Origin: Amoebophrya sp. A120
Taxonomy: Eukaryota > Protista > Dinoflagellata
Length of the DNA stretch: 64,000 nt
Assembly (NCBI GenBank): GCA_905178155.1
Contig: CAJINV010000004.1
Span: 6,848,358-6,912,357 of the forward strand
Direction of reading: 5' to 3'
A program made the translations under genes and the position numbers. Position 1 is the first letter of the stretch; each line of letters opens with the position of its first letter. Under the pieces are notes generated by a model that saw only the letters and a list, made by a program, of their open reading frames with translations, was not told the DNA's origin and ran no database searches. Below, in pieces: positions 1 to 52,196 of this stretch.

Positions 1-1058
1 GCTGGACACAAAGCAGATTATCACGGCCGACGTAGACTATCTGGATGAGGGAGGATCCTTAGCCGGGATCGCCCTCCCCTTCAAGCGAGTAGACTGCCGG
101 AACAAGATCGCTGATTTTAACTATCCTCTGTGCAAAAGCTGTATTGCGCTCGCACTAATTCCAGGCATGAAGCACAAATCTTGTCTTTCAGTGAAAGCCG
201 CACTACAGATTTCAGTTGTAATGCAGCTGAGAAAAGTTGTCATGCGATAGCGATTTCTACTACTAGTGAAACTGCAGCGCGATACTTTTGCAATGCATAT
301 CAACGGCATCCTGCCCCATTGCACCACCCCTGTGTTTCCCGCCACCTGGGCAAAGGACCGAAGTCTGCGGCCCAAAGAAATCCAACACGTGGACGACCTG
401 GAGTTTTGCGACTCGCCAGAGATGGCGCAGCTTCTCCTCGACGCGGCCAACATATCAAGCGTGAAAGTGTCTGGGTCTGGAAGATTCTGAGACTTGTCAT
501 TCATGTTTTGCATTGGCCATGATGTCTGTGATGCATGCCCTAGCATCACAGATTTTTTGAGGGCTTCGCGATGCCTATTTATTTTCCGCATGACAAATTC
601 CCTCTCCGCGTAGGCAATCGATAGCGGTTTTGCAGGTGCAGCCGGGTGGTAGTTAGGAAGTGGGCCGCGTCTCCACCTAGGGGTATCGGCAGAGGCTAAA
701 TCTGTTCTAACGCCCAGGTATTGGCAGAGGCTAAATCTGTTCTAACGCCGACCCGCCAGGAGTTAAATGGTACTACTACTACTACGCGTAGCAAAAATTG
801 TATTCCCTCTGCTGCTCATGCAATGCAGATTTTTTTGGAATCCAAATTCAGCATCACAAGTTGCATTCTTCCAGACCCAGACATTTTTACATTTGATACA
901 ACAACCGGAAAGACGACCAGTTCCAGGAGTGTTGCCGCATGGTCGCGGTGTGTTACCCACACGGGTGCGCGCTCCCGTCGAAAGCCGTGCCGGAAAGCGT
1001 CGCCAAAGTTGTCACGTTCGGGTATGAGACGATGGGGCCACGTATGCAAGGCAGATGA
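1..1058 (+). CDS. Hypothetical protein, 3' part, split by two introners (exons ~<1-121, 305-452, 904-1058)
   Basis: Frame LDTKQII...KIADFN joins GILPHCTT...LLDAAN joins NRKDDQFQECC...MQGR* when each introner and one 5-bp repeat are removed; TGA at 1056-1058. Confidence 0.7.
122..299. mobile_element. Introner (non-canonical intron), TAT...ATA, diverged TIR
   Basis: Left tatcctctgtgcaaaagctgtattgcgct vs reverse complement of right end tatgcattgcaaaagtatcgcgct; flanks ttaac/tcaac; removal restores frame; internal tgtcatgc. Confidence 0.75.
453..898. mobile_element. Introner family A carrying a nested SINE-like insertion
   Basis: TIR tatcaagcgtgaaagtgtctgggtctggaag / cttccagacccagacatttttacatttgata; direct repeat caaca at 448-452 and 899-903; removal restores frame. 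Confidence 0.92.
614..784 (+). mobile_element. SINE-like (or 5'-truncated LINE 3'UTR) element with (TAC)n tail, copy 1
   Basis: Interrupts the family A consensus; 7-bp duplication cgcgtag at 607-613 and 785-791; internal 35-bp tandem pair 682-751; ends in tactactactacta; near-identical copy at 15180-15321. Confidence 0.85.
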
Positions 1059-1268
1059 AATAGTCGCGTAGTTCTTCCCGATTGTTGTCGATTTCTTGTG
1101 ATGCATGAGGCGCGCAAAAAAATTAAAATATGAATTTGAAAGCTACCTCTTCTTGTTCTGTAATGCAATCGGACATTACAACACACACGACAAATCGGCT
1201 CCACGAAGATGAACACGCGGATTTCGTTTTTCCCTCCCACACCAAACCTCCACGAAGCTCGGCTCGCG

Positions 1269-2275
1269 ATGGACACCTTCCGCCGCGCGACGAACATTTA
1301 CGGGCAGTTAGCCATTGCAGTGACCGACGAGAACGGAAACGAAATCATCAAAAACTACCGCGGGACGAAAAATTACATCCGGTCAGACAAGTCCAAAAAC
1401 GACTTCGCCAGAATCATCGAAATTACGAAGAAAAAACTCGGCCCGAACTTCAAGGAGAAGAAGGACGTCGTGGGCTCCTGCCCCAACAAAGAGGATTGCG
1501 AAGCGTATCCGCTCCACGTCTACGACTGGATGTTTGAACTGCACGGCTTCAGCGATTGCTCCCGGAAAGCGCAACTCCAGGAGGGGAACGTCCGGATTAC
1601 TTGGATGACCGAACAAGCGGGTGGAGAAGCAGAAGCAGGCGGTGGTACTGCTGCTGCTGTTGTCAACACCGAGATGAACGACAAGAAGAACGCCGAACAA
1701 GAAGAAGCAGGAGCTGGTCCTGCACCTCCTGCTGCCCCGACATCAACTACTACAAAGATGAAAACGAAAAAGGCGGACCGTACCGGGAAGGAGGAGCGCG
1801 AGGCGTCCAAGCGACATGGGCGAGGAAACCTGCGGCACCTAGAAGGCCGAACGTTGACCTGGGTGAAGGGCCGGGAGTTGTGGGGGAAGGGGGAGAGGAG
1901 CTACGGAAAACTGGGTTTCCTGCCCTTCCGAGACTGGCCCAAGCACTGGTGGTATCAACTGCAAAAATGTGTGGGTCTCGAAGAATCCGAACTTGTGATG
2001 CTGCATTTGGATTCCGAAAAAACCTGTAAGTATTGCATAAGCAGCAAAGGGAATGCAATTTTGGCTACGCGGAGAGGGCATTTGTCATGCGGAATAGGTA
2101 TCACGAAGCCCTCAAGAAGTCTGTGATGCTGGGGCATGCATCACAGACATCATGGCCCATGCAAAACGTGCATGACAAGTCCCAGAATCTTGATCTTCCA
2201 GACCCAGACACTTTTGCATTTCATAGCTGGTTTTTGAAAGAGCAGGACGTACAGCCGTATGTGGATTTGTTGGAG
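1269..2275 (+). CDS. Hypothetical protein with one introner; start (1209 or 1269) and 3' end uncertain
   Basis: Long ORF to ...DWPKHWW continues as FLKEQDVQPYVDLLE after removing 1953-2225; possible GT donor at 2276. Confidence 0.6.
1953..2225. mobile_element. Introner family A
   Basis: TIR tatcaactgcaaaaatgtgtgggtctcgaag / cttccagacccagacacttttgcatttcata; flanks ggtgg/gctgg; frame restored. Confidence 0.9.
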
Positions 2276-2508
2276 GTACATAGTACTTATTCCCCAAAAT
2301 TTTTTCTCTACTACGTCTACGACTACGTGAACGGTTTAGAAGTATTGTCTTGTTGAAATCAACTACCTGTACCTGCTTCGTTTCACGACCGACGAAGATG
2401 AAGAACTGAATTTCTACCATGCTGTTGCTGACACGACGCACATGGCTCCTTCGTGCATCAATGCACCAACTTCCAGCTCTTATTGCTAAGAAGCGAGCCG
2501 AAAAAAAA

Positions 2509-3691
2509 ATGTCGGAAGATAACTACTTACTTACAATCTTTCATACCTCTACATACCAGGTCATGTTCGGCGTCGTGAACCAGAAAGAATACGAAGCAGC
2601 GTTGCAAACCGGACTCTCCAAGGATGACGCCCTGCAAAAAGCCAGCTGGTTGAAGGAGCCGTGTACCCTGAGAATTAGTAACACGTCGCTGGATATCTAC
2701 GCGACCCCGCGGTTTGATAAAAAAGCAAAAGACGTGATCCACATCAAAATGTCCGCCCGGAAAACGGACGACTACCGATACACCAACGACCACGCGACGG
2801 GGCACTGGGGGGAGTTTGAGGAGAAAGTTAATGCGGACTTCAAAATTATGGAAGTGTCAGAAACGAAATCGTCAAAGTTGAAATAGTTTGTCATGCATAA
2901 GATGCAAGGCATGGAGTGCCTGTCTTGCCGGGATGGCAAGTGAGGCAGATTGTGAGCTTATTTAGGGTTTGGGATAGAGCTGCTGAAGGAGCATGACAAA
3001 AAAAGTCTTCTGTGCCCAAACAGCATGACAAATGGGATTCCGGTCGTGCTCCGAAAATTTGTCATGCGCCGTTTGAAAATTGGGCTTCCAACTGGTATCC
3101 ATTTTATGCATGACAAATCATTTCAACTTTGACGATTTCAATCCTGACAGATCCATAAAAATGGTCATGTCCGACGAGCAGCGGTTGCAGCAAGAGGCCC
3201 TGCAGAAGATGAAGCAACAGCTGAAAGACGAGCGTATTCTTGCACAGAAAAAAGAGTTATCCCAGAGAAAAAAGCTGGCAGGGCATGTTTGTCATGCAAA
3301 AATAGATACACAGAAAAATCTGTCATGGGCGGACTCATAGCATGCTATTTAGGATAATACGCAATACAAGTTTTTTTGTCAATTTATTTTTGCATTACAA
3401 AGAAATGTGACCTGCCAGCTTTTTTCTGTGTGATAAGAGCAAGAGGAGGAACAAGGCAAGAAGATGAACAACGGGAAAAATAGCAAAACGTCCAAGAGTA
3501 GTACCGCGTCTGGCGCACTAAACGTAAAGAAGAATCAAGAGGAAAAAGAAAAAAAGGTGAATCCGAACAAGGCGAAGGACAAACAATCAGCTTCTACGAC
3601 GACGAAAGCCAACAAGCGCAAGAAGACTGAGGAGACGGATGGAAGTAAAGAAAAACCCGATCCGGCGTCAAAAAAGCAGAAGAAAAAGTGA
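2509..3691 (+). CDS. Hypothetical protein with coiled-coil and Lys-rich C-terminus, two introners
   Basis: MSEDNYLL...VNADFK + MVMSDEQ...AQKKE + QEEEQGKKMNN...KKQKKK* join in frame after removing both introners; A-rich start context. Confidence 0.75.
2847..3157. mobile_element. Introner with ~54-bp TIR
   Basis: tatggaagtgtcagaaacgaaatcgtcaaagttgaaatagtttgtcatgcataa mirrored at the right end; direct repeat aaaat (2842-2846, 3158-3162). Confidence 0.9.
3258..3435. mobile_element. Introner
   Basis: TIR tatcccagagaaaaaagctggcagg / cctgccagcttttttctgtgtgata; flanks agagt/agagc. Confidence 0.9.
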
Positions 3692-4269
3692 GGGTTACTA
3701 CCTCATACATGAGCTGATCTTCTTGTTATGGGATTTGGTACAATTTCAATTTCATCATCCGTGTCCGACCTTCTTAGATGTTGCCAACGAACGTGCTATT
3801 TACGTAGATTTTTGTTGAAATCGTATTCCTACTTTCAATTGTGCTGCTGCACTGGAGCAAAGACTCCAAATCCATCAGCGACCGTTCTTGTGCCGTCCCG
3901 CCTTCTCCGTCGAATATATTCCACCTCTCTGTACTAGTGTGAGTAACAGAATGGACGTTGACGCTAGTCGAGTCTTTTGCTTTTTGTTTGTTCTTCTATG
4001 TTGTTGTACTGACCAAATACACTTACGCAGCGGTGAAAAGTCTCATGTTTGAACCGAAACAAAGGAACTCGGTCATGCCTGCTGCGGTGATTTTTTTCAA
4101 CGCATGGATTGAATTGTCGCTAACGAAACTAGGTTCTGGACACTTTTATGCGCATTGCTTCTGATTGTCGATTCCTTATTGACATCCATCGTCATCGTCT
4201 GAATGAACAAGGTAGTAGTAGTAGTATTACCCATCAAAACGGGGTAAAACGATAAATAAAAGAGTCTAT

Positions 4270-7200
4270 CTATTTATTATCGTTAGTATTGCAGCTGCCG
4301 GAGCCGCTATCGCTGCCTTCTTCTATTTCAGGTTCGTCTTTTTTCTTCTTCTTCCCCCGCGCGGGCTTGTTCTTACATTTGTCTTGGTGTTTCCGCATCC
4401 TCCCGACGTACCAGTTTAGTGCTCTATTCTGGCAGTGCCACTCCTGATCGTTGTGGTCGTATCGTAGCTTGTAAGTCCTGCAGTGCCTGCACCTCAAGTA
4501 CTGCTCTCCTGATCTACTCGTGAACATGTTATCGGTGGGAACACAAATCTTCCACGCCTTGCCTTGGCCTCCATATGTGTACCTGCCTGTTGCGCTGCAC
4601 CAGTAGTGATACTCTGTTCTACACACACTGGGAGGATTCTGTGACCCATGCGGCCTTTTATCCAGCGAAGAATTATAGCCCACCTTTATGAAGTTCCCGC
4701 TCCTGTGGTCCTCAGCATGCTTTTCCATGGCGCCCGCCGACTCCACAAAAGTAAGGCCGCATGGTATGCATCGAATTTTCTTGTGTGCGTGCTTTCCTCC
4801 TCCCTTTTTCAGTTCGCGAATTTCCGGATTCCGCTGCAGTATATTCGTCTTGACTTTTTGATCTAGCAAGGCGTCTTGATGCTGGTTCACTTCCAATATT
4901 CGCTGTAGCATGGGGTCATCAGCAACAGGGTAGCGGGCAGGATGCTGTTGCTCCAGGTGCTCGAGAAGGGGCGCAGGCATGCCACAGGAGGGGTGATTCT
5001 CGGCCAATTCGTCAAAATACTCTCTGCGATCAACTTCCGCCTGCGAGTCCAGTCCCATGAAACCAATGATGCTGCGCGAACACCAAAAGCACTCCTCACT
5101 GTGAAAAACTTGCTCCGGGGCGCCGTCAGGAATCTTCATCATCTGTTGCAGCTCTTCCGCCACGGCGTCGTCGTCCCAGCCCAGCTCTTCGCCCTCTTTA
5201 CGAATTTCGTCTTTCATTTTCTCGAGCGGTGACGAAGAAAAATACTTCGCCGCCAACTCAATCTTTAGCAATTGGTCACCATCAGCCCAGTCTTCTGCCG
5301 TCTGCCGGATGAAGGCCCATCGAGTCAAACAGAAATAAACCTTTTTGTTGACTTTGTAGCACGACAGCTCATTTTCTGCAGGTGGTGGTCTCCTCGTGTC
5401 CGCCTCCGCCATGGGCTCCCACAGCAGCTGAAGAGCCTCCGGGCCCAATTTGCATTCTTTGCGAAGGAACTCCAGCGCGTCACCAAAAAAGTCAGGAATT
5501 TTCTTCTCCCGCGCCTCTACCTCTTTCAGATCCTGCGCCGATCTGTAGTAGTCATGCAGGCATAGCCGCGGAACTCCCAAGGCATCTGCTTCCGCTGGTG
5601 GGCTGGCTCGCGGATAAAATTTGCCGATCAGGGCCGCTCGTACCAAGTCGTTTTTTGGTTTCCGCATAGTATGCGCGATCGTCTTCAGCTGTAGGTACCT
5701 GACTTGAGCACGAATGGGAGGGATCTTCATTCTGCGCCGCAGGCTGCGCGAGCTGGCCTGGTTTTGGTCGTGTACCCATAACGGTATCCCCAAGAACATC
5801 TTCATCATTTTTGTTTCCGCCGTTTGTAACAGGTTGGAGTGGTCCTCCCCGACGAATCGGACCTGTAGGCCGTAGATCATGATGGAGCGGACCACGATGA
5901 TCAGCAGTTCCCCCTTGCGCTGCTGTGTCAGGCCGGTTAACCCGGAAACTGTCGACTTTAGTGCATGAAACGCCGACCAAGCCTTTGAGATTTTTATGCG
6001 GATATCTGCGTCGTCGTTCGTGTTCACGCCGAGGCTTCGCGTTTGAATTTTTGTGATGTCGTCCATGATTCTCTTGCTCATGTTCTCACTCATCCCGCAC
6101 TGGTTCAAGACATTGCTCATCAGCTCGGTCAGTTCGTTGTTGAGTGGCTCGAGCTTCTTCTTGATTCGCTCGCTATTGTCCTCCACCTGCTTCAGCACCT
6201 CAGCAGCCTGCCCCTGCGAGAATAGGGTGGCGTCGTCGGCAAAGAGAAGGCGGCCCAGCAAGAATTTTATTAGCGTGTCGTCTTGATTTTCACCGAGCAG
6301 TGCTCTCTTTCCCGCTTTCGCCAGCTCGTGAATTTTTTCTTTTCTTTCCCAGTGTCGCGCCTTGTCCATTGCACTCAAACTAACGCCCCAGGCTTCTTCC
6401 GGTAACTTCCGCCGCTCTAACTGAAAAATCCGCATTACAGCCGAATAGCAGACCAAGAACAAAAGGGGAGAAGATACACAGCCTTCCTTTGTTCCGTTTT
6501 TTACGGTAAGTGGTATGCTGTCTTCAAACATATGCGCCGCCGATCGATGTGAGCACCTTATCACCTGCCAGCATCTTGATTCTCCCAACCCGAGTTCTCG
6601 AAACACGCCTTCCATCAATCTCTCATCGAGGCTAGGGAATGCCTTGCGTAAGTCGATGAGCGTCGCCACTAATCGGTAAAAGGTTGGGGACTTAGAGAAG
6701 TGTCGGAAGTCTTCGCGTATTCGATTGAACACCAAAAGGCTGTCCAGCGTTCCTACTCCCGCCCGGAATCCAAACTGCTCGGCGTTGAAGTAACCCACGG
6801 CCTCGAGAGCCTTGTATAGGCGGTCCGAATAGATTTTCGTAACCAGTTTCATGAGTAACGGACTGATTACCAAAAATCTATAGTTATCGGCTGAACTTCT
6901 TGCGCCTTTGCCCTTGTGCAACGGAATGTCGCGACACAAATGAAATTTTTCTCCCAATTCCGAGAGGGGCCTCGTGTCCATCTCGGTGCTGATAATTCCC
7001 GCGATCACTTCCACCGAATCATCACTGAAGTGCTTCAGGATTTGCGGGGTGAGTCCGTGCACGTCTTTGGCCTTGCCTCCTTGCGCCATGTGACGAATCG
7101 CCTGCGCAAGCTCCTCTGCCTCCACCGGTGCGTCCAGCTCCGCGACTGTTTCCGGCCGGAGCTTCGTCACTACTTCTTTCAACCTGCTGTCGATCGGAAG

Positions 7201-10200
7201 CGGTTGGTCTTTGTGAAGGGGCGAATTCCCCACCGCATTGTACTGGGCGCGGGACTGTGCGGGGGTTATATGACACGCGCGGTCGCTCTTTCTTACTTTT
7301 TCTTCTCTAAAAAGTTGCCACATTCGCGCCTTCGACTTGGCAGATTCGAGCAGCTGTTCCGACGTAGCGCGCGGAATTGTTCTTCTCGTTTTCCCGGTAA
7401 GCATAGGCGCGATCTCGATTAGATAGTCCTGCAGCTGCTCCAAGTTACTTATTTTGCCCGCGCTGTGACGCCGCTGCAAGCACTTGTTGACGTGGTCCCT
7501 TGTTTCGCCCGGAATCTCATTGAGGATGCCCTTAGTTAGTGCCTTCCTCGCTACCCCTTCCTCACGCAGCCTCTGAAAGGATTTCACATCGCAGGCAATC
7601 TCGATAGCGGAGTGGTCGAAAGATACTGGAGCAAAAGGCGCAGCGTCGTCCCGGTTGCGACCCCCAAGTGAGAATCTTCGATGCGATCGAATTTTTTCCG
7701 CCTGCTTTCCCAATGTCAGCCAGTGATCGATTTCTGTTTTCCCTCGGTAGGTGTGGTAGTTGTCCGCCTTGAACCATGAGCCGGCAAGCACTAAATTCAT
7801 GGAAACCAAGTTTGCGGCAACTTGATGCCCCCTCTGCGAGGTAACCTTGCTCCCGAAGCCGCCACTAATGCAGGAGCTTGCATACTCGTCGGATCCTGCT
7901 CCAATGTGTGCATTGAGGTCGCCACCCATCAACAACATCTTCCACTTTTCTTTCTTCATTTTTTTGAAGTCCTTCGCCGTGTTTGCGAGGCTGCGGTCGA
8001 AGGCCTTCACTGCATGCGGCTTCGATCCCGATGTCGGCGCATAGTAGGCAGAGAGGACGATCTCCGGGAAAGCTACTGCCACTACTCGCTCTCTAGCGCG
8101 TACCAGGTTCGCTGGAATTGGGCCCCTGCCAAGTTGCTTTCTCAATGTAATTCCGGTGATGAGGATACCAGCTCCATTTATCCACAGCAAATCAAAATCC
8201 TTTTTCCGAAGCCATCGATGCTTCTCGCTGCTGTCGCCGGAGTTCTCGCGCCCACCTGGAACAAGATCCGCATCGTCTTCCGGAATGTCGTCATCAGTCA
8301 TCTCTTCAACGCGATCGCCCTGGTCAAGGTCAGCAACACCATAGTCAGAGTCATCCTCCACGGGGGCATCTCCTATCCCGTCGCCAACAGCATAGGAATC
8401 CTGCTCGTTTCGCTTTGTAAGTTCGGTGGCAACAGCTTCCCCGCGCGTTCTGGAAGAATGAAGCGACTTCTTGTGGTACTCAAATTCACTGAGCATGATA
8501 GCATCGTAGCGCCGAATGCTCGCAACACGCAGACAATGCCTAAGCCTGTCACTATCCCTGCCAGCGCCACACATGTTTATGCGTGCGAACTTCATTCTTC
8601 CGTGCCCGACCAGCGGCGGCGGGTCGTACACACTTTCGGCGAGTTCAGGGAACGGCTCCCAGTCAATTTCGGACTTTTGCTGCTCTTCCCATTCCTTAAG
8701 AAGCCTCGCCCTATCCTGTTCGATTTGCTTCATTGCATTTCTGTGGCCTTGAATTTGCGGGTCAGCGTTACCTCCTCCGTCTCCGCCAGTTGCTGTTATT
8801 GCCTGCGGCCGCACTGACGTGGAAGCTTTCATATTGACAGGCCCCACGTGAAGCGCAACACTACTGCCCTCAGGCCCTGCAGGCTGCTCTCCATGCTCTG
8901 GCAGTTCAGGTTCAGATGGCGCCGTAGTAGTGCTGTCCGCCGACGAAGCATAGTCTTTTGCTGATACTTGGTCAGCAGCAACGCAGCTATGCTCTGTGCT
9001 GTTCTGGCCTCTGCACGACGGGGCTGCAAGATCAACGCGGTTAACACCCAATCCCGTCTCCGCAAGTATACCGTCGTGGGTGGACAGCTGAGAACTATTT
9101 CCACGATGGCCTGTGGCCCTACTGCAGGTAGTTCGCGAGGACTCCATAAAGGAAGAAGAAGATCCTGAATATACTGCAGGAACCGTGTCTCCATCTGTTA
9201 GCGTGGTCCGTTGTCCTGTTATTTGTGGTGATTGCAAGTGATGTTGATTGGCGCCGCGCCAAACAATGCTTCGCCCTTGCTGCTCGTCAGTAGTTGTTGG
9301 GCTAATGCTCGCCAGTGGTTGCGCTTCTGTCTCGCAAGGAAGATGAGCCGGCTGCAGAAATCTGTAATGCGCAGCGGCGCGCTTGGGCGGCAATGCCGCA
9401 GCTTGTTCTGAGCCCCAGGTGACCGTAACGCCCAGCGCTGGTTTCTCCCATATGTCATGCGCAGCGGCACTCGTGGGCAGCCGTTCCACTGCTTGTTCTG
9501 CGCCCCGTTTAACGTCCGACAAAGGTTTCCCGAATCTGTGATGCGCAACGGCACACGTGGGCGGCAATTCACCTCTCTGCTCTGCTTCCCGGATGGCGCT
9601 CGACGAGGCTGCTTTCTCACGACTGAGAACAAACTCGGCGACAGGCTGCAGTAGCTCACCGTCCTGCTGCGAGGCACTTCTGTTAGCGGCGAGCGGCGAA
9701 GAAGGATGGATATCCGGACAATGGCACTTTTGAACGCAAACATCGCAATGCCCGGACTCAGCTCCTGTTTCGTCACTCTTGCATCCCAAAGAAAAGCAGC
9801 CAGGCCCTGTGTCAAGTTCATCCCCAAGCTGCAGTAAGTCACCATCTCGAGCCGGCGAAGAAGAAAGTAACTCTCGTCGCTGAACTTCCATTGTGTCGCA
9901 GGCCGAGGTTGCTGTAACAGGGTCCACAGTATTATTGAACGCGGCCCCAACAAGCTCAGGAGCTGGCTTCTCAAAACTGTCACGTGCTGCAGCGAGCGCG
10001 GGCAACAACTCCACTGCTTGTTTTGTTTCCCGGATAGCGCCCCCGGCTGTTTTATTGAGTTTGTAATGCGCAGTGGCGCGCGTGGGCAGCAGTTCCCCTG
10101 TTTTATCGACTCCCCAATTTGTCATGCGCAACAGCTTCGGCTCCTCCAATTTGTCATGCGCAACAGCCTTCGCGGGCAGCAGCTCCACCGCTTGTTCTGT

Positions 10201-10410
10201 TCCACTGATGGCGCCCCCGGCTGTTTTGTCGAGTTTGTCGCTAGCAGTGGCGCGCGTGGGCAGCAATTCCTCTGTTTTCTCGGGTCTCCAATTTGTGATG
10301 CGCAGCACCTTCGATAAGGCGAAGTAAAAACTAAAACACGTACCAGCGAACGCACATGCAACGAGGAGTTGCGTTGATGGATACAATGGCCAGCCTACTA
10401 TTGCCATCAT
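4270..10410 (-). CDS. LINE polyprotein: N-terminal repeats, apurinic-like (EEP) endonuclease, reverse transcriptase, C-terminal C2H2-like zinc fingers
   Basis: 2046-aa uninterrupted ORF. EEP motifs RINMCG, MLSE, YAP, GDLNAHIG, IDH, FDH. RT motifs IPLHKGKG..NYR, QFGFR, DLRKAF, G.KEGCVSSPLLF, LFADD. Zinc-finger-like CFWC..HLEQQH, CIPC..HAEDH, CRHC. Confidence 0.93.
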   Translation of the reverse strand: MMAIVGWPLYPSTQLLVACAFAGTCFSFYFALSKVLRITNWRPEKTEELLPTRATASDKLDKTAGGAISGTEQAVELLPAKAVAHDKLEEPKLLRMTNWGVDKTGELLPTRATAHYKLNKTAGGAIRETKQAVELLPALAAARDSFEKPAPELVGAAFNNTVDPVTATSACDTMEVQRRELLSSSPARDGDLLQLGDELDTGPGCFSLGCKSDETGAESGHCDVCVQKCHCPDIHPSSPLAANRSASQQDGELLQPVAEFVLSREKAASSSAIREAEQRGELPPTCAVAHHRFGKPLSDVKRGAEQAVERLPTSAAAHDIWEKPALGVTVTWGSEQAAALPPKRAAAHYRFLQPAHLPCETEAQPLASISPTTTDEQQGRSIVWRGANQHHLQSPQITGQRTTLTDGDTVPAVYSGSSSSFMESSRTTCSRATGHRGNSSQLSTHDGILAETGLGVNRVDLAAPSCRGQNSTEHSCVAADQVSAKDYASSADSTTTAPSEPELPEHGEQPAGPEGSSVALHVGPVNMKASTSVRPQAITATGGDGGGNADPQIQGHRNAMKQIEQDRARLLKEWEEQQKSEIDWEPFPELAESVYDPPPLVGHGRMKFARINMCGAGRDSDRLRHCLRVASIRRYDAIMLSEFEYHKKSLHSSRTRGEAVATELTKRNEQDSYAVGDGIGDAPVEDDSDYGVADLDQGDRVEEMTDDDIPEDDADLVPGGRENSGDSSEKHRWLRKKDFDLLWINGAGILITGITLRKQLGRGPIPANLVRARERVVAVAFPEIVLSAYYAPTSGSKPHAVKAFDRSLANTAKDFKKMKKEKWKMLLMGGDLNAHIGAGSDEYASSCISGGFGSKVTSQRGHQVAANLVSMNLVLAGSWFKADNYHTYRGKTEIDHWLTLGKQAEKIRSHRRFSLGGRNRDDAAPFAPVSFDHSAIEIACDVKSFQRLREEGVARKALTKGILNEIPGETRDHVNKCLQRRHSAGKISNLEQLQDYLIEIAPMLTGKTRRTIPRATSEQLLESAKSKARMWQLFREEKVRKSDRACHITPAQSRAQYNAVGNSPLHKDQPLPIDSRLKEVVTKLRPETVAELDAPVEAEELAQAIRHMAQGGKAKDVHGLTPQILKHFSDDSVEVIAGIISTEMDTRPLSELGEKFHLCRDIPLHKGKGARSSADNYRFLVISPLLMKLVTKIYSDRLYKALEAVGYFNAEQFGFRAGVGTLDSLLVFNRIREDFRHFSKSPTFYRLVATLIDLRKAFPSLDERLMEGVFRELGLGESRCWQVIRCSHRSAAHMFEDSIPLTVKNGTKEGCVSSPLLFLVCYSAVMRIFQLERRKLPEEAWGVSLSAMDKARHWERKEKIHELAKAGKRALLGENQDDTLIKFLLGRLLFADDATLFSQGQAAEVLKQVEDNSERIKKKLEPLNNELTELMSNVLNQCGMSENMSKRIMDDITKIQTRSLGVNTNDDADIRIKISKAWSAFHALKSTVSGLTGLTQQRKGELLIIVVRSIMIYGLQVRFVGEDHSNLLQTAETKMMKMFLGIPLWVHDQNQASSRSLRRRMKIPPIRAQVRYLQLKTIAHTMRKPKNDLVRAALIGKFYPRASPPAEADALGVPRLCLHDYYRSAQDLKEVEAREKKIPDFFGDALEFLRKECKLGPEALQLLWEPMAEADTRRPPPAENELSCYKVNKKVYFCLTRWAFIRQTAEDWADGDQLLKIELAAKYFSSSPLEKMKDEIRKEGEELGWDDDAVAEELQQMMKIPDGAPEQVFHSEECFWCSRSIIGFMGLDSQAEVDRREYFDELAENHPSCGMPAPLLEHLEQQHPARYPVADDPMLQRILEVNQHQDALLDQKVKTNILQRNPEIRELKKGGGKHAHKKIRCIPCGLTFVESAGAMEKHAEDHRSGNFIKVGYNSSLDKRPHGSQNPPSVCRTEYHYWCSATGRYTYGGQGKAWKICVPTDNMFTSRSGEQYLRCRHCRTYKLRYDHNDQEWHCQNRALNWYVGRMRKHQDKCKNKPARGKKKKKDEPEIEEGSDSGSGSCNTNDNK
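9350..10310 (-). repeat. Degenerate ~84-90 bp repeats in the 5' part of the LINE ORF
   Basis: Recurrent E(L/R)LP(T/A)xAxAHxK/R peptide units; each of several units carries tgt(c/g/a)atgcgca on +. Confidence 0.7.
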
Positions 10411-11167
10411 GTCGTGCTCCTAGCAGGTTGCACTCATAGGGAGATTTGCACATCTTCTACTTTATTCGGTAAATCTATCATCAATTTCAATGTCAGCCAT
10501 CCTGGCGTCGGTCGTTGTACCTCTACTATAATCTCGTTTTCGGTCGGCGTCGGATTTTTTGTCTGTCTCTTGCGGAATAAGTTTGTCTGAGTATGGTCAT
10601 ATCGGTTGTGGTGATGGTGGTTTTCGACGTCGTCGGTCGTGTGACGGAAAATCTAAATCATTTTCGGTCTCATTGTTATTTCGGTTAGGTACAGCGTGCT
10701 TTCGACTAGTTCATCCTTGGGCGTGCTGAAGCTCATTCGGTTGATGAGATTTGTTTGTCTTCTCGGTATTGCAGTCAACAGGACAACCAGCGCGATAGTC
10801 GTCGTACCACGGTGAATCTTCTGGCTCATGCATTTTTGAAGACATTTCTTCACAACGATTTTTGCGTTTGCACGACCAATGTAGAGAAACTACAAAACGC
10901 ACATGTTAAAAATTCATTATCATTACCAACAGGCTCTTAAGTCTAAAACTTTCGAAGACAAAGCAAGAAAGCACTTGAAAGTGCTGGCGCTCGCAAGTGA
11001 GACCCTGTACTAGTTTGAAACTGCACGAGCTTGAACTTTATTTTCCCCTGCTACGGAGGTGCAGGTGCAGCATTTTCATTTCGACACCGAAACTATTGAA
11101 ATAAAGAGAAAATCGAAGTTGTAAGTTTTTCCACCTTTTACTTCACTCGGCTGCGCGAACCCAGAAC

Positions 11168-12116
11168 ATGTTTCGTCCTTCTGCGTCACGACTCGTGGCC
11201 GGTGCTTGTGTGGCGGTCCCGCTGCTTGTCGGAGCCGACTCGTCGTCCCGCAGGGGGAACCTTCGCGGGGGGAAGAAAAACTACAAGCTTGATGCTTCTT
11301 CTGGCTACCAGAGCCACGACCAAGACCAGGAAAACGACGCTGCTTGTGCTTCTTCGATAGGCACTGCCAGCGTCCGCGCTTCTACTTCCACCTTGACGGC
11401 CGCGGCGGCATCTGCTCCTCCTGCGCCGTCGACTTCGCTGCTCTCCGTTGACCACGGTCACGGAAAAAAGCAAGGCCGGCACCACCACCACCGTATGGCT
11501 TGCTCAGCTGGGACAATGATCTCAACTGGTGGAGCAACTTGAATTTGAATTTGTGATGCAAAAAGAAAAACTGGTGGACGATCTGGCTACGGCTACTAGT
11601 AGCCTTATCATGCAGTCTGTACTTAGGATGACAAACACAAAGCCCTAGCACTCCAAACCGCCCTCGGAATCATTCTGCCCACTAGATTTACAATTAGCCA
11701 TGCAGAAGCAGAAATACTTGGAGTAGAGCAAGTGGAAGTGCTTTTTAGGCTCTGCCGCGCCCATTACAAAATTTCTCGTCCTGTGTAAATGGCAATAGCG
11801 CGGCGCGCTATTGCGATTTACGCAGGACGAGAAATTCCGGCCGGTTCCATTGTTCCACGACTCGAGATTTTTGTTCCAGCTTGGCATGGCATAATACACC
11901 GGCGCGCGCTACCTCCGCAACAACCGCTCGTTCCGCAGGGACCGGCGATGCCTCCGCAGCCGCAGCAACATGTTCTTGCCCAGGGACCGTCGGGGTCGTT
12001 GCAGTATGTCCCGCAAGCTGCTGTTGCACCGCAGGACCCCAGCACTGGTCCTGTTGCTCCGCTGCCCGCAGGTGGAGCTGCCCCCTCGGCGCCGACACCT
12101 CAAAAAAAGGGGTTCG
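11168..12116 (+). CDS. Hypothetical low-complexity protein with signal-peptide-like N-terminus; 3' end uncertain
   Basis: MFRPSASRLVAGACVAVPLLVGA...GRHHHHR joins RALPPQQP...KKGF after removing 11494-11896; probable GT donor at 12117. Confidence 0.65.
11494..11896. mobile_element. Introner containing an internal 67-bp palindrome
   Basis: Left tatggcttgctcagctgggacaatgatctc vs reverse complement of right end tattatgccatgccaagctggaacaaaaatctc; direct repeat caccg (11489-11493, 11897-11901); frame restored. Confidence 0.85.
11770..11836. repeat. Near-perfect palindrome (33-bp arms, 1-nt centre)
   Basis: aatttctcgtcctgtgtaaatggcaatagcgcg-g-cgcgctattgcgatttacgcaggacgagaaatt, two mismatches. Confidence 0.9.
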
Positions 12117-13025
12117 GTAAAAAGGCGATGATTCTATGAATTGCAAAAGTCATTTCGACGCACTTACTCTTGTTCTCACCAAAACGAATTGCAGTCATTG
12201 CATGACAGACCTCTCTCTTAAGGCAGATCAGCATTGCATCAACTTTTACATACTCCTCAATTTGAGAAAATTATTCGTGATGCAATTTCTACTAGAAAGC
12301 GCGTCACCGTAGCACTTTTGCAATGCATAGCATGCACAGCTCCAGAAGAGCAACCAGGGTTTCCGAGAAGACATTGACAAGCAACGAGGACCGTGCCCGA
12401 ATTGCCGCTGAGTGTCGATGTTACGAAGAGAGTGAGTGGATCCGAGCCTTCTTGATGGGTTTGTGTTTTTATGTAGAGAAAAGGGTTTATTCTGATTTGG
12501 CTTCTGCTTTGACTTCATTGTGACTTGAAAGAATGAAGGGTCCGGCGTCCTACCGAGTTCGGTTTTCATTTTGACGGAACATGCAATTTTAACATCTTCA
12601 ACGTCCTAGCACTTTCTTAAAAACTTCGCATCTACTTATGGAATTATGATCGACATACCAGTACTGACGCAGCTTCAACAAATAAGTATCATCATCGCAA
12701 ACTTGCAAATACCTAAAATAAAGTAAAAGTTCGTTTTACAATATTTTTTCGCGAATTTAACGCGCGTCCCAAGGTGGAGGACAACCGAAAGTATGAAATT
12801 ACATGATAGGAACATAATCTGCATGGAGATGGACAATGACATAGACGAGCAAAGGCAGAAAAACGCCAGTAAGTTGTCGGTGCTGAGTCACAACAACGAT
12901 GAAAGAACGCGAGAAATATTGCAGGCAAATGGCGCCTTTTATTTGCCTCCCTCAATTTGTTGCGCGACGATCGACCGGAGAACCCGCCGGCTCATGCAGG
13001 CTCATGTTCTAAATAATTTTTCCCA

Positions 13026-13060
13026 ACCTCCATACCAATAGAGTCTATTGGTATGGAGGT
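13026..13060. repeat. Perfect palindrome (17-bp arms, 1-nt centre)
   Basis: acctccataccaataga-g-tctattggtatggaggt. Confidence 0.9.
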
Positions 13061-13988
13061 GAGAAAACTAAATGACTCCATATCAGAATCTCTAGGGGGT
13101 TCGTTTGGAGATGGATCGGAATAACAGGGGCGGGGTGTTCCTGTTCAGGCTGTCCGGGGTGTTGAGGTGGTAAGAGGTGGGGCCGGGGGTTTCGCGACCA
13201 GGAGAAGGAGGACGCGGGGGCAGGTTCGGAGGCGTCCCGTTTCCGTCCGTGTCCGTGCTCGTCTCCTCGGAGTCGGATCCCGTGGCACCCTGAAGCGCGT
13301 CGCCCAGCTTCGAACGAAGGCGAGCCCCAGCGCGCTCGATGCGGCTGGCACGCGCTTCGCATTTGCGCAAAGCCTTGCGCAACTTGTGGCGGGACATTTT
13401 GGGCATCTTGTTAAGGGCTTGGCAGTGTTGAAGGAACACAGGCCACGAAATTCAAAGCAAGCCGAAAGGGGCTGAGAATGTTCAAAATCCTAGGGGGTCA
13501 GCTTCGTGACTTGTGTCCACCAGCTGCCAACGACCTGAGGGAGATGGGAAAAGCCTCAAAGGTTCGGGACCCCGCCAGCTGTAGGGCTGGCCTAAGCATT
13601 TCCATGATGGGGATCAGGTCGGGCATCATCATCATCATCAGCAAGACCCTAAGGATTCCGATCATGAGGCTCCGAAGGCCTAGGCATTGGGATCGATTTA
13701 GGTCGGTGAAGATTCTGAACATTTGCATGCATGAGCAGCTGCATAATGATCTTCGTCAACAGGATTTGAAGATATATTCGGAATATAATTGATCCGGTGA
13801 ATCAGAGTCGACTTTTTTTTCAGACAAAATAAAAGCTGCAATAAATCAACACGCTTTCAACGTAATTGTCGCGAACAAAAGAGAAGAAGAGCAGGGGGCT
13901 TTGCTTCCTTCCGCGCTCTCTGCGCGCAAGAGAGAGTAGCGGAGTTTTCATTTGATGTAGGATTGAGGATCGAGGACAAGGAAAAAAA

Positions 13989-15584
13989 ATGTCTTGTTCT
14001 CTCAGATCTTCGCCGCGTCTCCTCCACGCGATTGCCTTGTTCCTGCAGCTCAATTTTTCCACGGTAGCCGGCACGGGTTTTTTCCTGAAAAGAACGAGGA
14101 AAAACCACAGCAGGGCGGAGAACGGGCAAAAAGTTACAGCCTTCTCATCTCGCACAGCCCGTCCCGAGCCGCCCCCCTTACGCCACGACGCAGATGTCGT
14201 CTTCACAAACAGCCTGACGGACGAAGTCCTCGCGACACTGCCCGTGGAGATCCCGCGGGATTTTTCGCACTTCATGCAGGGACTGATGTTCCGGCACGAG
14301 CTGCGGTCGGCGGAAGGCGCTGCGGTGGAAGAGGAAAAACAACTTGACTCTTCTTCTTCTACTTCAGAAACAGCAGATTTTTCACAAATAACAAATCCTC
14401 GTCCCGGTAAAGACGCGGGGATGATCTTCCAGTGGGAACACGACGATAACAACAACCACGGCGCGCGTGGGTTCTGGATGAAGCAGACTTTCATCGATCT
14501 GGACATTCTGTGGTGCGACTCCAAGAATGATTTGGTCGATTTCAAACAGGCCAAAGCCGACGACTTGAACGCGGTGACGCCGAGTCGAAGCGCGAAATTT
14601 GTCGTGGAGGCCCGGAAGGGATGGGCGGCGGAGAAGCTGTTTGGGAGGATGTTGCGGAGTGGTGGTGGAGAAGATGATAGTAGAAATGATAATCCTATCA
14701 AATGAAGAAGTGTCTGGGTCTGGAAGAATGCAACTTGTGATGCTGCATTTGGATTTCAAAAAAAGCTGTATTGCGTGAGCAGCAAAGGGAATGCGATTTT
14801 TGCTACGCGGGGAGGGCGTTTGTCATGCGGAATAGGCATCAAGATGCCCTTAAAACATCTGCGATGCTAGGGCATGCATCACAGACATCGCGGCTCATGC
14901 AAAACGTGCATCACAAGGCTCAAAATCTTCCAGATCCAGACATTTTTGCATCTGATAAATCCCTCGTTCGACAACATCAAGTGCGCGATTGATTTCAAGA
15001 ACGGGGAGACATCCTTGCTGGGCGGAATGATGCGGCCGCTGGGCGGGATATCAAGTGGAAAAATGTCTGGGTCTGGAAACTTGTGATGCTGGGCGGCTTA
15101 TCATGAGGAGGCCACAAGTGCTGGCTCAGCATGAGAAGTTTCTGAGCTTCTAGGTGTTGCCTATTCTGCATGACAGACTGCCGGGTGGTAGTTAGGACGT
15201 GGACCGGGTCTCCACCTAGGGGTATCGGCAGAGGCTAAATCTGTTCTAACGCCCAGGTATTGGCAGAGGCTAAATCTGTTCTAACGCCCACCCGCCAGGA
15301 GTTAAATAGTACTGCTACTACTTGCATGACAGAAAAGTTGCGCTCTTGGGTAACGTGCATGACAGATTTGAGAGTCATGCCAGACACGCATGACAAACAT
15401 GGACTCTTCCAGACCCAGTCATTTTTACGTTTGATACGGGAATGTAGAACACGACGACCACGATGCCAAAGAAGCAGGAGAAAAACCGCAGCAGTTCTTC
15501 ATCGCCAAAGACGACCTCCCAGCGTTCGGCGCGAGTCGGGAGGATGTGGTGCTGGCGAGGGCGAGGGGGGTGCTGGATTTTTGA
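13989..15584 (+). CDS. DUF192 (COG1430)-like protein with signal-peptide-like N-terminus, two introners
   Basis: Motifs LPVEI..QGLMFR..GMIF..FWMKQTFIDLDILW..FVVE..G match DUF192 as I recall it; exons 13989-14695, 14963-15048, 15442-15584 join in frame to TGA. Confidence 0.8.
14696..14957. mobile_element. Introner family A
   Basis: TIR tatcaaatgaagaagtgtctgggtctggaag / cttccagatccagacatttttgcatctgata; direct repeat aatcc. Confidence 0.93.
15049..15436. mobile_element. Introner family B (family A TIR, different core) with nested SINE-like insertion
   Basis: TIR tatcaagtggaaaaatgtctgggtctggaa / ttccagacccagtcatttttacgtttgata; direct repeat cggga; core matches 50066-50317 in reverse complement. 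Confidence 0.92.
15180..15321 (+). mobile_element. SINE-like element with (TAC)n tail, copy 2, 5'-truncated relative to copy 1
   Basis: gccgggtggtagttagg...ggagttaaatagtactgctactac, near-identical to ~641-785; replaces about 4 nt (gttt) of the family B consensus. Confidence 0.85.
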
Positions 15585-16117
15585 ATACGCTTTTTATCCT
15601 CTCTATGCACTTTTCACGTGCACTTGAAGTTGAAGTTCTTTGACCGCGAAACACCAGGCTGATGCTCCCAAGGCACCTACAGAATCATTTTTTCCCGGTA
15701 CGTTGATGTAAAACGAATTCCAGAATTAATTTTCTTCAGTGGCATGTACTTACGGTAGTGGTGCTGCTGCGACCTAGAAAGATCCGGGAGTGTGTTTGTA
15801 GCCACCTGTGTTTGATGATATCACACAACCGCGTGGCGAGCTGTGTTGCGGTGTACTCGAAGAGACAGTAGTCAGCTCACTCTTTCTGCGTAATAATATC
15901 CGAGTCGTTCTCATACTTATTCATCTCATCTTTCTCGCAACACGTACAGAGAGATCGAATTTCTGCAAGGAAGACGGGCAGTGGTGAGGAGCTGTTGAAC
16001 AGACACATTTGTGAGCGCGTGGAAAAACGCTATAAACAGCTGCGAGGATAGAGGAAGCGCAGGTAAAGATATTGGAAACTAAAGCTCAAGTTAAAAAACA
16101 AAGAACAAACTGTCAGA

Positions 16118-41121: not shown

Positions 41122-41531
41122 GCCTTCCGAGATTTCCCGGGAACCTGTGCAACTCGTGCAACTTTTCCACGTTTTTGCTGCGAATCGCGACGGTATGGCC
41201 GAGTTGCACGGCGGGTTGCACGGTGCAACTCGCCGTGCAACTTTCGCAGCATTTCGCGCTGAACCAGGACGGTATGGGCCTTCCGAGATGTCCCGAAAAC
41301 CTGCGCAACTCGTGCAACTTTTTCACGTTTTGCCTTGCGAATCGCGATGGTATGGCCCGAGTTGCACGGCAAGTTGCACGGTGCAACTCGCCATGCAGCT
41401 ATCCCAACACTTTGCGCCGAACCAGGGCGGTATGGGCCTTCCGAGATGTCCAGGAAACGCATGCAACCCGTGCAACAGTTGCACGCTTTGCCTTGCGCAT
41501 CGCGATGGTATGGCCCGAGTTGCACGGCAGG
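41122..41531. repeat. Tandem repeat, ~157-bp unit, ~2.6 copies
   Basis: gccttccgagat recurs at 41122, 41278 and 41436; units rich in tgcaac/gttgca. Confidence 0.85.
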
Positions 41532-42041
41532 TCGTACGGCAGGTCGCGCGCTGGCGCATGTGGGCAGTATTTCCGGCGCGCCCACGCTGGTGCGCGTGGG
41601 CGCATATGCGGGCGGTGTCCATCTTTGCGCGCGGTGGCACATGTTGGCGACTTGTCGCGCCGACGCTGGTCAAGTGCTTGGTAGTATCTTCCCCCCCCGT
41701 CTTCGCTGGTAGCTTTGTGGTTGGGGTTGTCAATATGGCGCATTGACAACCCTCCCCCGCACAAAGCGATCAGGCGTATTCCACGAAAACAAAGCTCAGG
41801 CGGTCTTCCTAACCAACACGCACACTAGTCAAAACCCATTACGGCTGTTGCCCCTAATTCTTGCAGAGGCCCCCCGCCACCTGCGCAGGCCGATCACCTC
41901 GGCACGCGCGGGCAGCACTTCCACGTCGGCGACCGCACACAGCGCGCCAGCGTGCCCAACTCTGTGCCCGCGTTCCCACCTAACCGTCGCCCTGTGTTCA
42001 GGCGTTATTCGCGGGCCTTTGCGTATGTCTGCCCTGCTCCA

Positions 42042-49206: not shown

Positions 49207-52196
49207 TCATTGTCGCTCAATGAAGCAGTGATGTATCGGTGGACAATCTTCGTCATCGTCAGCATCAGAAGTTGTAATATTACACGTTATCTCGTCGGTA
49301 GTTGTTGTGGTCGCATTTTTATCGATCTCCTCGATCTTCTCGCATGTTGTATTCGTTTTCGTCATCATCGGCGTGTCGAAAAGCTCGAAATCCACATGTA
49401 GAGAATCTTGTGCCGTCAAGATTTTCTTCTTCGGAAATGGGAGCCACAGGCAGTAATTTTCGTCGTGATGTAGAGCTGGGTCGACGGAGGTATCCTGTTG
49501 TTCATCGGTTTCGTCACGGTCATGATTGTCGTTTGTAAGTTTTCTCTTTTTCTTCATATTCCTCGTTTCCCGCTTTTTCATCTTCTTCAATCGTTTCGAG
49601 TGCACAAACGGAAACCCTGCCGCGTCCCTGACGTCTGCTTCTGTGAGTTTCACGTTGAATATGGATGAATTTCTATCAGCGGCGTCACAACTGCTGCCAG
49701 AGGTGCGTTCTTTAATGGGCGCCGTTATCAATGCGGGGGCCTCGGGCTCGGCGATTGTACAACTGTTCTTGCCGGCACCCCCTGGCGCACAAGAGGAAGA
49801 GCAACTTCTGCTGTCAACAATGTTTCGAAAGAAATTGGTGGGCGGAGCAGGTGGGTTCGCCTTTGCACGTGGCTGAGCAGGACGAGGACGTTCCTGTCGC
49901 TGGCCATCATCTAGCTCCTTGGTATTACAGTCAAGTGGATTTATCGCATGTCCATGTCGCGCATCAGCGTCGAAAATGTTTATTCTGTCAGCATCCCGTT
50001 CTTCTTCTTTCCATTCGTCAAACGTCGGGACTCCGCTTGGTCGCCGGCCCAGCCAGAGGTCAGCATATCAACTGTAAAAATGTCTGGGTCTGGAAGAATG
50101 TATGTTTGTCATGCTTGTCTGGCATGACTCTTAAATCTGTCATGCACGTTACCCAAGAGCTCCATTTTTCTTTGATGCAGAAACGCAGTTTGTCATGCAG
50201 AATAGGCAACACCTAGAAGCTCAGAAACTTGTCATGCTGAGCCAGCACTTGTGGCCTCATCATGAGACGCTACCCAGCATCACAAGTTTCCAGACCCAGA
50301 CATTTTTACATTTGGTACAGCATCCCGTTCTTGTTTCCACTCGCCAAACGTCGGGACATCCCTTGGTCGCCGGCCCAGCCACAGGTTCGCGAGAAACGTC
50401 ACTCTGGGGGGATCGCGGTCCAAGGACGGATTTTTCGGCGCACCAGAGCGGCCAACGTTTTTCAGATCTGTCTTCCTTGCTCCTGATCCAAACTTTTTAT
50501 TTCCAATCTTGGTTTTTTTCAGAGCGCGACCACCGCCGGTGGCATGTGCAGGTTCTTTCACAGCAAATTCGGCTGGAATACCGTGCAAAAAATTTCCGGA
50601 GAAGGCGATGTGTTTTCCTTTTCGCGGGTACGAAATCAGGCCTTTCGAGACGCCTTGTTGCGTAGTAGAAAGGGTTCTTTTCGTTGTGCTCTCATCCTGA
50701 TTTATTTTCTCCTGGTTAACGACATCAATACTCCCGTCGATGCCGTTGCCGTTCCCATCATCCGCGTTCTTGTTCTGTGTTGAGCTGTTGCTGGGGCTAG
50801 TACAACTTGTAGCTGCTCCCGATAAAAAGTGATCAAAGGGCACGGCATTCAGCACGATAGTGGGCGCAAAGCTGTTCGTCTTGCGGTTCGGCTCGGAAAG
50901 GTAGGTGACGGTGGCCAGGAAGGGGCAGTCGGTTTGTTGTTTATCGTCGCTGTTCATCTTCCCCCGGGCTCCTCGATTATTCTCAAAAAATTCTTGCGCC
51001 TCATCCCGGTCCCAATGAAAATCTTTCCCTTGGCGTTTTCTCGAATCCGCCACTTGGATCCACCACTCGACGCCCAACACATCTTCTGGTAGTTGAGTGG
51101 TGGACGCTGTTGTTGAAGCCGTCGGCGCATCATGTTGAAACACAGTGTCATCTAGCTTGAGATGCTGTTTCCAATAAGAGAACACCTTGTCCGCAAGCTC
51201 TTCGCAGGGGTTTGTCGCTGGTGCATCCACTATGCATTCCAAATACTTATGCCTGGGTCTGGAAACTTGTGACGCAAATCTACGAATTGTGGGCGCACTA
51301 CAATATGCAACCCGGCATGACAAGTTTTTGTTTTTGCGCTGCTGTGTGTTTCGTTTTTTGAATGACAAACTGCGTTTTTGCATGACAGGCAATAGGCCCT
51401 TTTCCTGCTCATGCATCACAGATTTAAAAGAAAAAGTCATGCCAGACAAGCATGACATTTTTGGACTTGCATTCTTGCAGACCCAGACATTTTTGCATTT
51501 GATATCCACCGGCTTCCACCAGGAGTGGCCGATGGGAAGGTTGGGAGAGAGGGTGGGAGCTGCTGGGGGGGAAAGAGTTCTTTCGGTGGTCTTCGTCATC
51601 TTTAGGGTTGATGTAGCATGCGTTGCAGCGGCTGCCGTTCTTGCGACACCTCCAGGTGGATCAGCATCTTTTACGTTTAGTTCGTCCGTGATAGAAGTGC
51701 CTGTAGTTCCCGTCGTCGTGCTAGAAGTATTGGCGAAAAGCATGTAGTGCGCGCGGTCGAAGAGGTCATCATCAATGACGTTTTTTACAGCTGCCGGACC
51801 ATTGGCACCTTCGCTCGGTGATGGAGCAATGCGATTCAGAAATTCCGGCGCATTTGCTTTATCGCCTTGCTGTGCCTGCTCCTGGTTCTTGGTCGCAGAT
51901 TCCCCACAAAAAGTCGCGACGTTGAAGAACTGGTCACAGATTCCCCACAAAAAATCTTTGGCCTGGTCAGCACATAATTGCGACGAAAAAGCTCGCGTGT
52001 CTGTTCTTGTCCCTGTTGCTGGTGTAGCAGTGACCGGAGAAATTTTCTCCTGTTCACGGAGCAGTAGACCCTGTTGGTCGCTTTTTTTCGACACGATGGC
52101 GCCCGCAGACGAAACTCCCGCTTGCTGGTGAGCAGCATCGCCAGCGGTTTTCTTCTTCGCGGCTTTTTTTCTCGTTTTCGATTTTTTTTTCGCCAT
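49207..52196 (-). CDS. 2OG-Fe(II) oxygenase-like protein, two introners
   Basis: GVEWWIQ..FHWDRDE..ATVTYL..PT..GKHIAFSG.FLHG..RVTFLANLW fits the HxD...H...R double-stranded beta-helix pattern; frame runs from MAKKK through both introner junctions to the stop at 49207. Confidence 0.72.
50066..50317. mobile_element. Introner family B
   Basis: TIR tatcaactgtaaaaatgtctgggtctggaa / ttccagacccagacatttttacatttggta; direct repeat cagca. Confidence 0.92.
51231..51504. mobile_element. Introner family B variant, stop-free and frame-preserving in the host ORF
   Basis: TIR tatgcattccaaatacttatgcctgggtctgg / gcagacccagacatttttgcatttgata; direct repeat tccac. Confidence 0.9.

Follow-up and report, generated by a model that had tools for sequence, protein, structure and literature searches.

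The stretch of DNA analysed here, hereafter the window, comprises 64,000 nt of the Amoebophrya sp. A120 genome (contig CAJINV010000004.1) and includes two copies of a short repeated element, each nested inside an introner, an intron-making transposon bounded by terminal inverted repeats (TIRs), together with one intact long interspersed nuclear element (LINE; Table 1). The two copies are 95.8% identical across 143 nt (E = 1.6e-63) and each carries an internal 35-bp tandem pair and a TAC-type tail, which is (TAC)n in copy 1 and TACTGCTACTACT in copy 2; comparison of the window with itself gave no third copy. Copy 1 is flanked by the 7-bp target-site duplication (TSD) CGCGTAG, and microhomology between TSD and element leaves its 5' boundary ambiguous by ~5 nt. 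Copy 2 is 5'-truncated, with 2-nt microhomology at its 5' junction, and has lost ~5 bp of its target (GTTTC), judging by the uninterrupted target (...CTGCGTTTC^TGCAT...) that is seen both in the empty host at 50066-50317 and in contigs of sequencing run X1 with an empty site. The tandem pair, the tail, the 7-bp TSD of copy 1 and the truncation and small target loss of copy 2 had all been recognised in a first-pass annotation of the window. An 11-bp TSD was also considered for copy 2 and rejected, being an internal repeat of the host itself.

Table 1. Coordinates of the nested element copies, their target motifs, filled and empty host introners, and the LINE in the window.
Feature	Position	Strand	Remarks
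Element copy 1, subfamily A	614..784	+	final ~170 nt of the element, (TAC)n at end
TSD of copy 1, left (CGCGTAG)	607..613	+	partly microhomologous with the element
TSD of copy 1, right (CGCGTAG)	785..791	+	7-bp TSD
35-bp tandem pair, copy 1	682..749	+	from repeat comparison
Target motif GCATGACAAA plus 9-nt spacer, host 1	588..606	+	precedes the putative first nick; read from the sequence
Element copy 2, subfamily A	15180/15182-15322	+	final ~142 nt of the element
35-bp tandem pair, copy 2	15221..15290	+	from repeat comparison
Target motif CCTATTCTGCATGACAGA, host 2	15160..15177	+	read from the sequence
Host TIR introner 1, subfamily F1	453..898	+	filled with copy 1; 5-bp TSD CAACA outside
Host TIR introner 2, subfamily F2	15049..15436	+	filled with copy 2; within DUF192 gene; 5-bp TSD CGGGA
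Empty F1 host	1953..2225	-	target free (motif 2098); antisense to its own gene
Empty F1 host	14696..14957	-	target free (motif 14836); antisense to DUF192 gene
Empty F2 host	50066..50317	-	supplies pre-insertion sequence of copy 2
Empty F1 host	62787..63048	-	target free (motif 62927); from alignment to host halves
Intact single-ORF LINE	4212-10419 (ORF 4270-10419)	-	2049 aa stop to stop

Host introners and splicing

Each filled host, split at the element, aligns over its whole length with relatives in the window that carry no insertion, the halves of host 1 with the three empty F1 hosts, and the termini of each filled host are complementary at 26/30 bases. The hosts are multicopy, have TIRs and a short TSD and interrupt a reading frame, as Amoebophrya-type introners do. 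They further resemble the A120 introners described in the accessible text of PMC7789003 in their TAT-starting inverted repeats followed by a run of A, their short direct repeats, their length of ~240-270 nt and their non-canonical ends. The first-pass annotation had placed both copies in introners of a single TIR type; the TIR type is indeed shared, but the two hosts belong to different subfamilies and their 3' halves are only 71% identical. The motif GCAT[GCT]ACA[AG] occurs at 64 sites in the window, mostly within TIR elements and including families with unrelated TIRs, and is a candidate for a shared transposase-binding or splicing signal.

Removal of each composite (introner plus nested element) with one TSD copy restores an open frame at both window loci, the DUF192 protein continuing to 322 aa at copy 2, whereas with the composite retained every one of the three frames is interrupted by stops. 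Run X3 is guessed to be RNA and has no depth across 4377-9846. It contains exon pieces that match the window exactly and flank host 2 to its left and right (depth 115.6 and 152.5), while all depth within host 2, at 15094 and 15098, bears the letters of other copies; depth within host 1 is 0 at 501. The same run includes a contig from another element copy at depth 21.6. Both the reading frames and this depth pattern fit splicing out of the composite, and give indirect support to the removal from mRNA suggested in the first-pass annotation. The raw RNA runs X9 and X10 placed 8 and 2 reads on the window, too few to inform. A joint at 15048-15471 in X3 does not count as evidence of splicing, since it recurs in X1, a DNA-like run, and carries 11 other letters, corresponding to an introner-less paralogue. 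The DUF192 gene (13956-15589, + strand) itself holds two introners, and its paralogue, at equal DNA depth, lacks the second one (at 15049) and differs by those 11 letters there; both forms occur in X3.

Distribution of copies and the insertion site

Further copies were sought by an exact 27-nt pattern scan of a metagenome collection, which returned 12 more loci (L001-L012), every one from a single public assembly; the same pattern gave 0 matches in a viral collection. The resulting census of 14 copies, two in the window and 12 outside, is not a whole-genome count. All 14 copies lie inside TIR introners. Both host halves and the 5-bp TSD of the host are visible in eight of them (the two window copies, L003, L005, L008, L009, L011 and L012), and a single half is visible in the other six (the right in L001, L002, L004, L007 and L010, the left in L006), where the contig edge cuts off the rest. 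Introners occupy 7.6% of the window by our own spans, 17.5% of the loci when filled hosts are included, and 17% of A120 according to the accessible text of PMC7789003, giving an expectation of roughly 8-17%. The chance of finding 14 of 14 copies in introners is 0.17^14 = 1.7e-11, and at an assumed share of 40% it is still p = 2.7e-6. No copy among the 14 is found in an ordinary intron or in intergenic DNA. The confinement to introners proposed in the first-pass annotation thus extends beyond the window: all 12 outside loci fall in TIR elements, and the alternative of a scatter over non-coding DNA in proportion to space is not borne out. In X1, summed depth at window position 664, inside copy 1, is 407, whereas unique contigs have 41-53 and positions in the hosts 32,000-199,000; these depths are not copy numbers, and they suggest few elements among many targets.

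The 3' junction is fixed almost to the nucleotide. It lies within 2 nt of one site, in one orientation and across three host subfamilies, in 12 of the 13 copies in which it is visible, and the chance of this in hosts of ~260 nt is about 1e-36. The site follows, at a distance of 9 nt, the core GCAT[GT]A[CG]A[AG]A within a motif of the type CCT[AG]T[TC]C[CT]GCAT[GT]A[CG]A[AG]A, and empty hosts read CCTATTCCGCATGACAAA, nine bases, then CGCGTAG (F1), TGCATCA (F2) or GA[CT]T[AT]GG (F3). The motif stands directly 5' of the junction in eight of the nine copies with a visible 5' junction, including L006, whose 3' end is missing and whose 5' junction comes directly after the motif; copy 1 has a small insertion inside the first half of its motif. 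For the five copies without a 5' side, the site was deduced from the downstream flank. Empty hosts contain 4-5 GCAT[GCT]A[CG]A motifs each, a single one of which is used, and in 10 of 12 copies the end of the tail is separated from the right end of the host by 111-115 nt. The nearby motif reported earlier is therefore present, but its distance, given then as ~25 bp, is in fact a constant 9 nt after GCATGACAAA. Most 3' junctions thus fall on a single nucleotide position in a target present in many copies, the pattern of target-specific retrotransposons without long terminal repeats (non-LTR). Because survival alone cannot yield nucleotide-precise 3' junctions, these results argue for targeting rather than mere survival in introners; of the two options that had been left side by side, that the element targets introners or survives in them, the first stands and survival alone does not.

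The copies fall into two element subfamilies, about 79-84% alike, that use one and the same site. Subfamily A, with a (TAC)n tail, includes the window copies, L001, L005, L009, L010 and L012, as well as L006 by sequence; subfamily B (L002, L003, L004, L007, L008 and L011) ends in CAAAA followed by CGATA, CAA or CGAAA repeats. The four tail types, (TAC)n, CAAAA(CGATA)n, CAAAA(CAA)n and CAAAA(CGAAA)n, vary in length by copy, and both subfamilies are found in F1 hosts. Over their final 78 nt the elements are 96-100% identical within a subfamily, whereas the host 3' halves are 59-90% identical; pairs with L008, which is shorter than 78 nt, score lower and were set aside in this comparison. Because the elements are far more alike than their hosts, the insertions are independent rather than spreading composites. 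Every TSD duplicates sequence of its own host, and no two of the nine visible 5' junctions are alike. The further spread by introner transposition that had been suggested therefore finds no support, and no composite with an identical nested site occurred at two loci among the 14 copies.

Across the eight copies with both junctions, the target changed by -5 to +18 bp: TSDs measure +7 in copy 1, +17 in L003, +18 in L005, +16 in L009, +5 in L011 and +7 in L008, and the change is about 0 in L012 and about -5 in copy 2. Microhomology is present at most 5' joints. The L012 junction shows a short duplication of the motif. In L003 (2964-3000), 37 extra bases at the 5' junction consist of an element piece followed by a target-motif piece, which suggests template jumps. 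The retrotransposition hallmarks named in the first-pass annotation, variable 5' truncation, a simple-repeat tail and a variable target change, are all confirmed in the larger sample, and with the fixed 3' end, the microhomology and the extra templated bases they make up the signature of non-LTR elements that move by target-primed reverse transcription.

The element also shows a strand bias. Flanks were scored with a 3-mer strand model and by open-frame length; the strand of one partial host was read off its contig, and that of the L008 empty host was set to plus on the basis of the BLAST list. The element is on the sense strand of the gene in all 14 filled hosts, in 13 of them by score and in L010 on the evidence of its frame and neighbours, compared with 6 of 17 empty hosts that are sense to their gene (Fisher p = 1.5e-4, or 0.002 with L010 counted against). 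With clear calls only, 10/10 filled and 5/12 empty hosts are sense (Fisher p = 0.005). If real, this bias would place the first nick on the template strand, and it suggests a coupling of insertion to the transcription of the host gene, or else to replication that runs in step with gene direction, as it might where genes are clustered in one orientation. Selection that removes antisense copies is a further possible source.

Nature of the element and competing explanations

On one reference, the 5' ends of the copies are nested, at 1017, 1512, 1585, 1647, 1668, 1703, 1731, 1740 and 1754, and 8 of the 12 outside copies reach further 5' than copy 1 or start with more sequence, up to 1.85 kb. L011, with both ends seen, is ~850 nt long. 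L002 runs for at least 1.85 kb up to the contig edge and includes a 332-aa open reading frame (ORF), open at its 5' side, that ends ~850 nt before the tail. An extension of the 5' ends had been proposed as a check, and it identifies the window copies as the 3' ends of a longer, ORF-bearing element. The label of a short interspersed nuclear element (SINE) attached to them earlier has to be dropped: SINEs are non-coding and under about 600 nt at full length, a definition that neither L011 nor L002 fits, and over the visible 1.85 kb there is no tRNA head (ARAGORN, 0 in 5/5 of the longest loci) and no match to an Rfam family. Penelope-like elements and retrozymes are recognised by a hammerhead ribozyme, a pseudo-LTR tandem arrangement and a GIY-YIG domain; no Rfam ribozyme was matched at E up to 5 in L002 900-1900. 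Neither LTRs nor TIRs of the element's own were seen at the 3' end or in the truncated copies. Each 35-bp unit is predicted to form an imperfect hairpin with a GGCTAAA loop; folding of the whole of copy 1 is not significant (z = +0.5), and a stable RNA structure is not supported across 12 windows of L002 (z = -1.2 to +2.1).

Taken together, these results make it likely that the short repeats are 5'-truncated 3' ends of an element of at least 1.85 kb that occupies a fixed introner site, probably a site-specific non-LTR retrotransposon inserted by target-primed reverse transcription. An endonuclease encoded by the element, most likely of the apurinic endonuclease (APE) type, would read the upstream motif and nick the bottom strand. 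Reverse transcription would then begin at the tail, the repeat growing by slippage and 1-3 nt of target pairing assisting. An early stop would be usual, and joining of the second strand by microhomology could give the changes of -5 to +18 bp at the target. The enlarged introner would keep its TIRs and TSD and still be spliced, so that the host gene survives. The gene for the enzyme could lie 5' of the visible L002 ORF end, with a helper acting in trans about equally probable.

Several observations weigh against this interpretation. Neither a reverse transcriptase nor an endonuclease linked to the element was found in the visible last 332 aa of the L002 ORF, which is charged and of low complexity (19% E, 11% R, 10% K), has no Pfam or Atlas match and no homologue in two word searches; a HMMER search with it recovered only a widespread motif of ~30 aa. 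For a LINE, 850 nt of non-coding sequence at the 3' side is a long stretch. The 12 outside loci come from one assembly that is not shown to be of the window's strain, and an exact 27-nt pattern would miss diverged copies elsewhere. L008 lies in a different TIR family, near the right end and ~10 nt after a motif that is only degenerate. The 3-mer score behind the strand calls is crude: four of the 14 filled calls are weak, that of L010 being slightly negative, two empty hosts flank the training sequence, and neighbouring hosts are not independent. Finally, no RNA joint spans either composite among the 15 of 321 joints listed, in contigs that drop repeats.

The ~30-aa aromatic/glycine motif of the ORF is at L002:430-520 (+) and matches no Pfam model. 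It is the centre of the 74 HMMER matches, with no reverse transcriptase in the 24 of these that were scanned against Pfam, and it is appended, often repeatedly, to unrelated algal and protist proteins (PIH1, Utp14, SBNO, DnaJ, FKBP).

It is possible, if less than probable, that the element is a non-autonomous retroelement with an ORF but no enzyme of its own, mobilised in trans by a LINE that may be the intact APE- and reverse transcriptase-bearing LINE of the window. This LINE has a reverse transcriptase by Pfam and by PDB matches to LINE-1 and R2, C-terminal Cys/His motifs, and APE-like motifs by our own reading against the consensus. It is 34-37% identical to one Amoebophrya sp. A120 protein, with nothing else at E <= 1e-20. 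The lack of an enzymatic domain in the visible ORF end would be consistent with movement in trans, as would the (TAC)n tail of the LINE, preceded by a TGG..TA similar to that of the element, and its standing as the only reverse transcriptase among 22 window ORFs scanned. However, its 3' junction is outside introners, its ~60-nt 3' untranslated region shares the tail alone with the element, and neither its C-terminus nor its A120 relative is related to the L002 ORF; moreover, the tail of subfamily B differs and yet the same site is used. The 3' untranslated region and the C-terminus led us to reject the window LINE as the parent element. Movement in trans concerns the source of the enzyme, and is compatible with site-specific insertion. 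Neither a TSD nor a 5' end was found for the LINE within the window. The N-terminal part of its ORF (9345-10313, - strand) is built of in-frame repeats with periods of 174 bp and 32 bp, which hold the introner motif GCAT[GCT]ACA[AG] six times.

A rather doubtful explanation is positional targeting, in which a protein or chromatin feature of the introner (e.g., its TIRs) would tether the machinery and direct insertion to ~114 nt from the right end regardless of sequence. The near-constant distance of tail end to host end, the variation of the bases at the nick between host subfamilies, and the unused GCATGACA motifs elsewhere in the hosts are all in its favor. Against it, L011 and L012 are 102 and 108 nt from the right end and still keep a motif distance of 7-9 nt, left-end distances vary (about 138-160 nt), and L008, only 34 nt from the host end, retains its degenerate motif ~10 nt upstream.

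Less likely again is a co-transcriptional variant of targeting, which we put forward as speculation: a ribonucleoprotein would recognise the motif, or a factor bound there, on nascent sense-strand pre-mRNA and insert co-transcriptionally into DNA that is sure to be spliced out. If true, the motif would mark a cis-signal of the unexplained non-canonical splicing of Amoebophrya, and the targeting protein would offer a handle on that machinery.

Three further explanations are very improbable. Random insertion with purging everywhere but in introners would suit a gene-dense genome in which exonic insertions do harm, and selection could also produce the strand bias, but it is at odds with the precision of the 3' junctions and with the lack of copies in ordinary introns or between genes among the 14 found. 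As the origin of these 14, a single old insertion, spread as a composite introner by DNA transposition and later shortened by 5' deletions, would account for the same site and orientation in related hosts, but not for 96-100% alike elements in 59-90% alike hosts, for TSDs that copy their own host, for both element subfamilies in F1 hosts, or for nine differing 5' junctions. A true SINE, ~170 nt long and driven by an internal RNA polymerase III promoter, to which the short window copies with their simple-repeat ends might point, is contradicted by the absence of a shared 5' end, by the lengths of L002 and L011 and by the negative tRNA (five longest loci) and Rfam searches.

Known systems and other features of the window

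The site-specific retrotransposon favored here has a close counterpart in Xenopus, where the non-LTR elements Tx1L and Tx2L are described, in the accessible portions of PMC1950540 and PMC6719617, as inserted in the DNA transposon Tx1D. In both cases a non-LTR element has one preferred site in a TIR-type transposon, which for Tx1L is read there as a safe-haven strategy. Unlike Tx1D, the host here is an introner within coding exons, whose safety depends on splicing, and unlike Tx1L, the element uses several diverged host subfamilies, with copies biased to the sense strand of the gene. The precise 3' junction, the variable 5' junction and target alteration, and the multicopy target are also shared with R1, R2, Utopia, CRE and NeSL, as far as these are covered in the consulted part of PMC4640811; none of the targets listed there, namely RNA genes, microsatellites, telomeric repeats and transposons, is an intron-forming element. 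The principle of targeting multicopy sequences, including transposons, is thus known from that source, and the differences here lie in an intron-forming target within exons, in the occupation of several host subfamilies and in the preference for one strand. The likeness to SINEs is limited to short copies, a simple-repeat tail and a TSD, as neither a fixed 5' head nor a tRNA-derived region was found and the short copies are truncations of an ORF-bearing element.

No nested site-specific retroelement is mentioned in the accessible parts of PMC7789003, PMC12130899, PMC11282704 and PMC13269885, and a literature search, which covered few subscription papers and not Repbase, found no published account of an introner-targeting retroelement. 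The element core is absent from the 12 of 14 supplementary files of PMC12130899 that were searched (files 13 and 14 were outside the search), and the one supplement of PMC7789003 gave no match to the host motifs. In PMC12130899, A120 introner families are listed as 'non-LTR', and TIR families with LINE peptide matches are given as well (fam6, fam16; file 8). Nesting of the kind described here could underlie some of these labels, and the LINE peptide matches are a weak hint that such passengers occur in those data; families labelled 'non-LTR' may be TIR introners with passengers, and such labels should be read with that in mind.

The element would represent a transposon that uses an intron-making transposon as a splice-protected landing site, giving three tiers of parasitism within coding exons. 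A length of 1.1 kb in L011, up from about 260 nt, indicates that the non-canonical introns probably tolerate added sequence inside them, and this tolerance points to end-defined splicing. The site would also provide a natural endonuclease target of about 18 bp that is precise in position, and the sense-strand bias a connection of insertion with transcription or splicing that is open to testing.

Elsewhere in the window, the region 40890-48760 is gene-poor, with tandem arrays (158, 31-32, 25 and 13 bp) and long inverted repeats (45788-46067 and 47337-47431). Near-perfect palindromes are present at 11770-11836 (67 bp, inside a TIR element at 11494-11893) and at 13018-13067 (50 bp).

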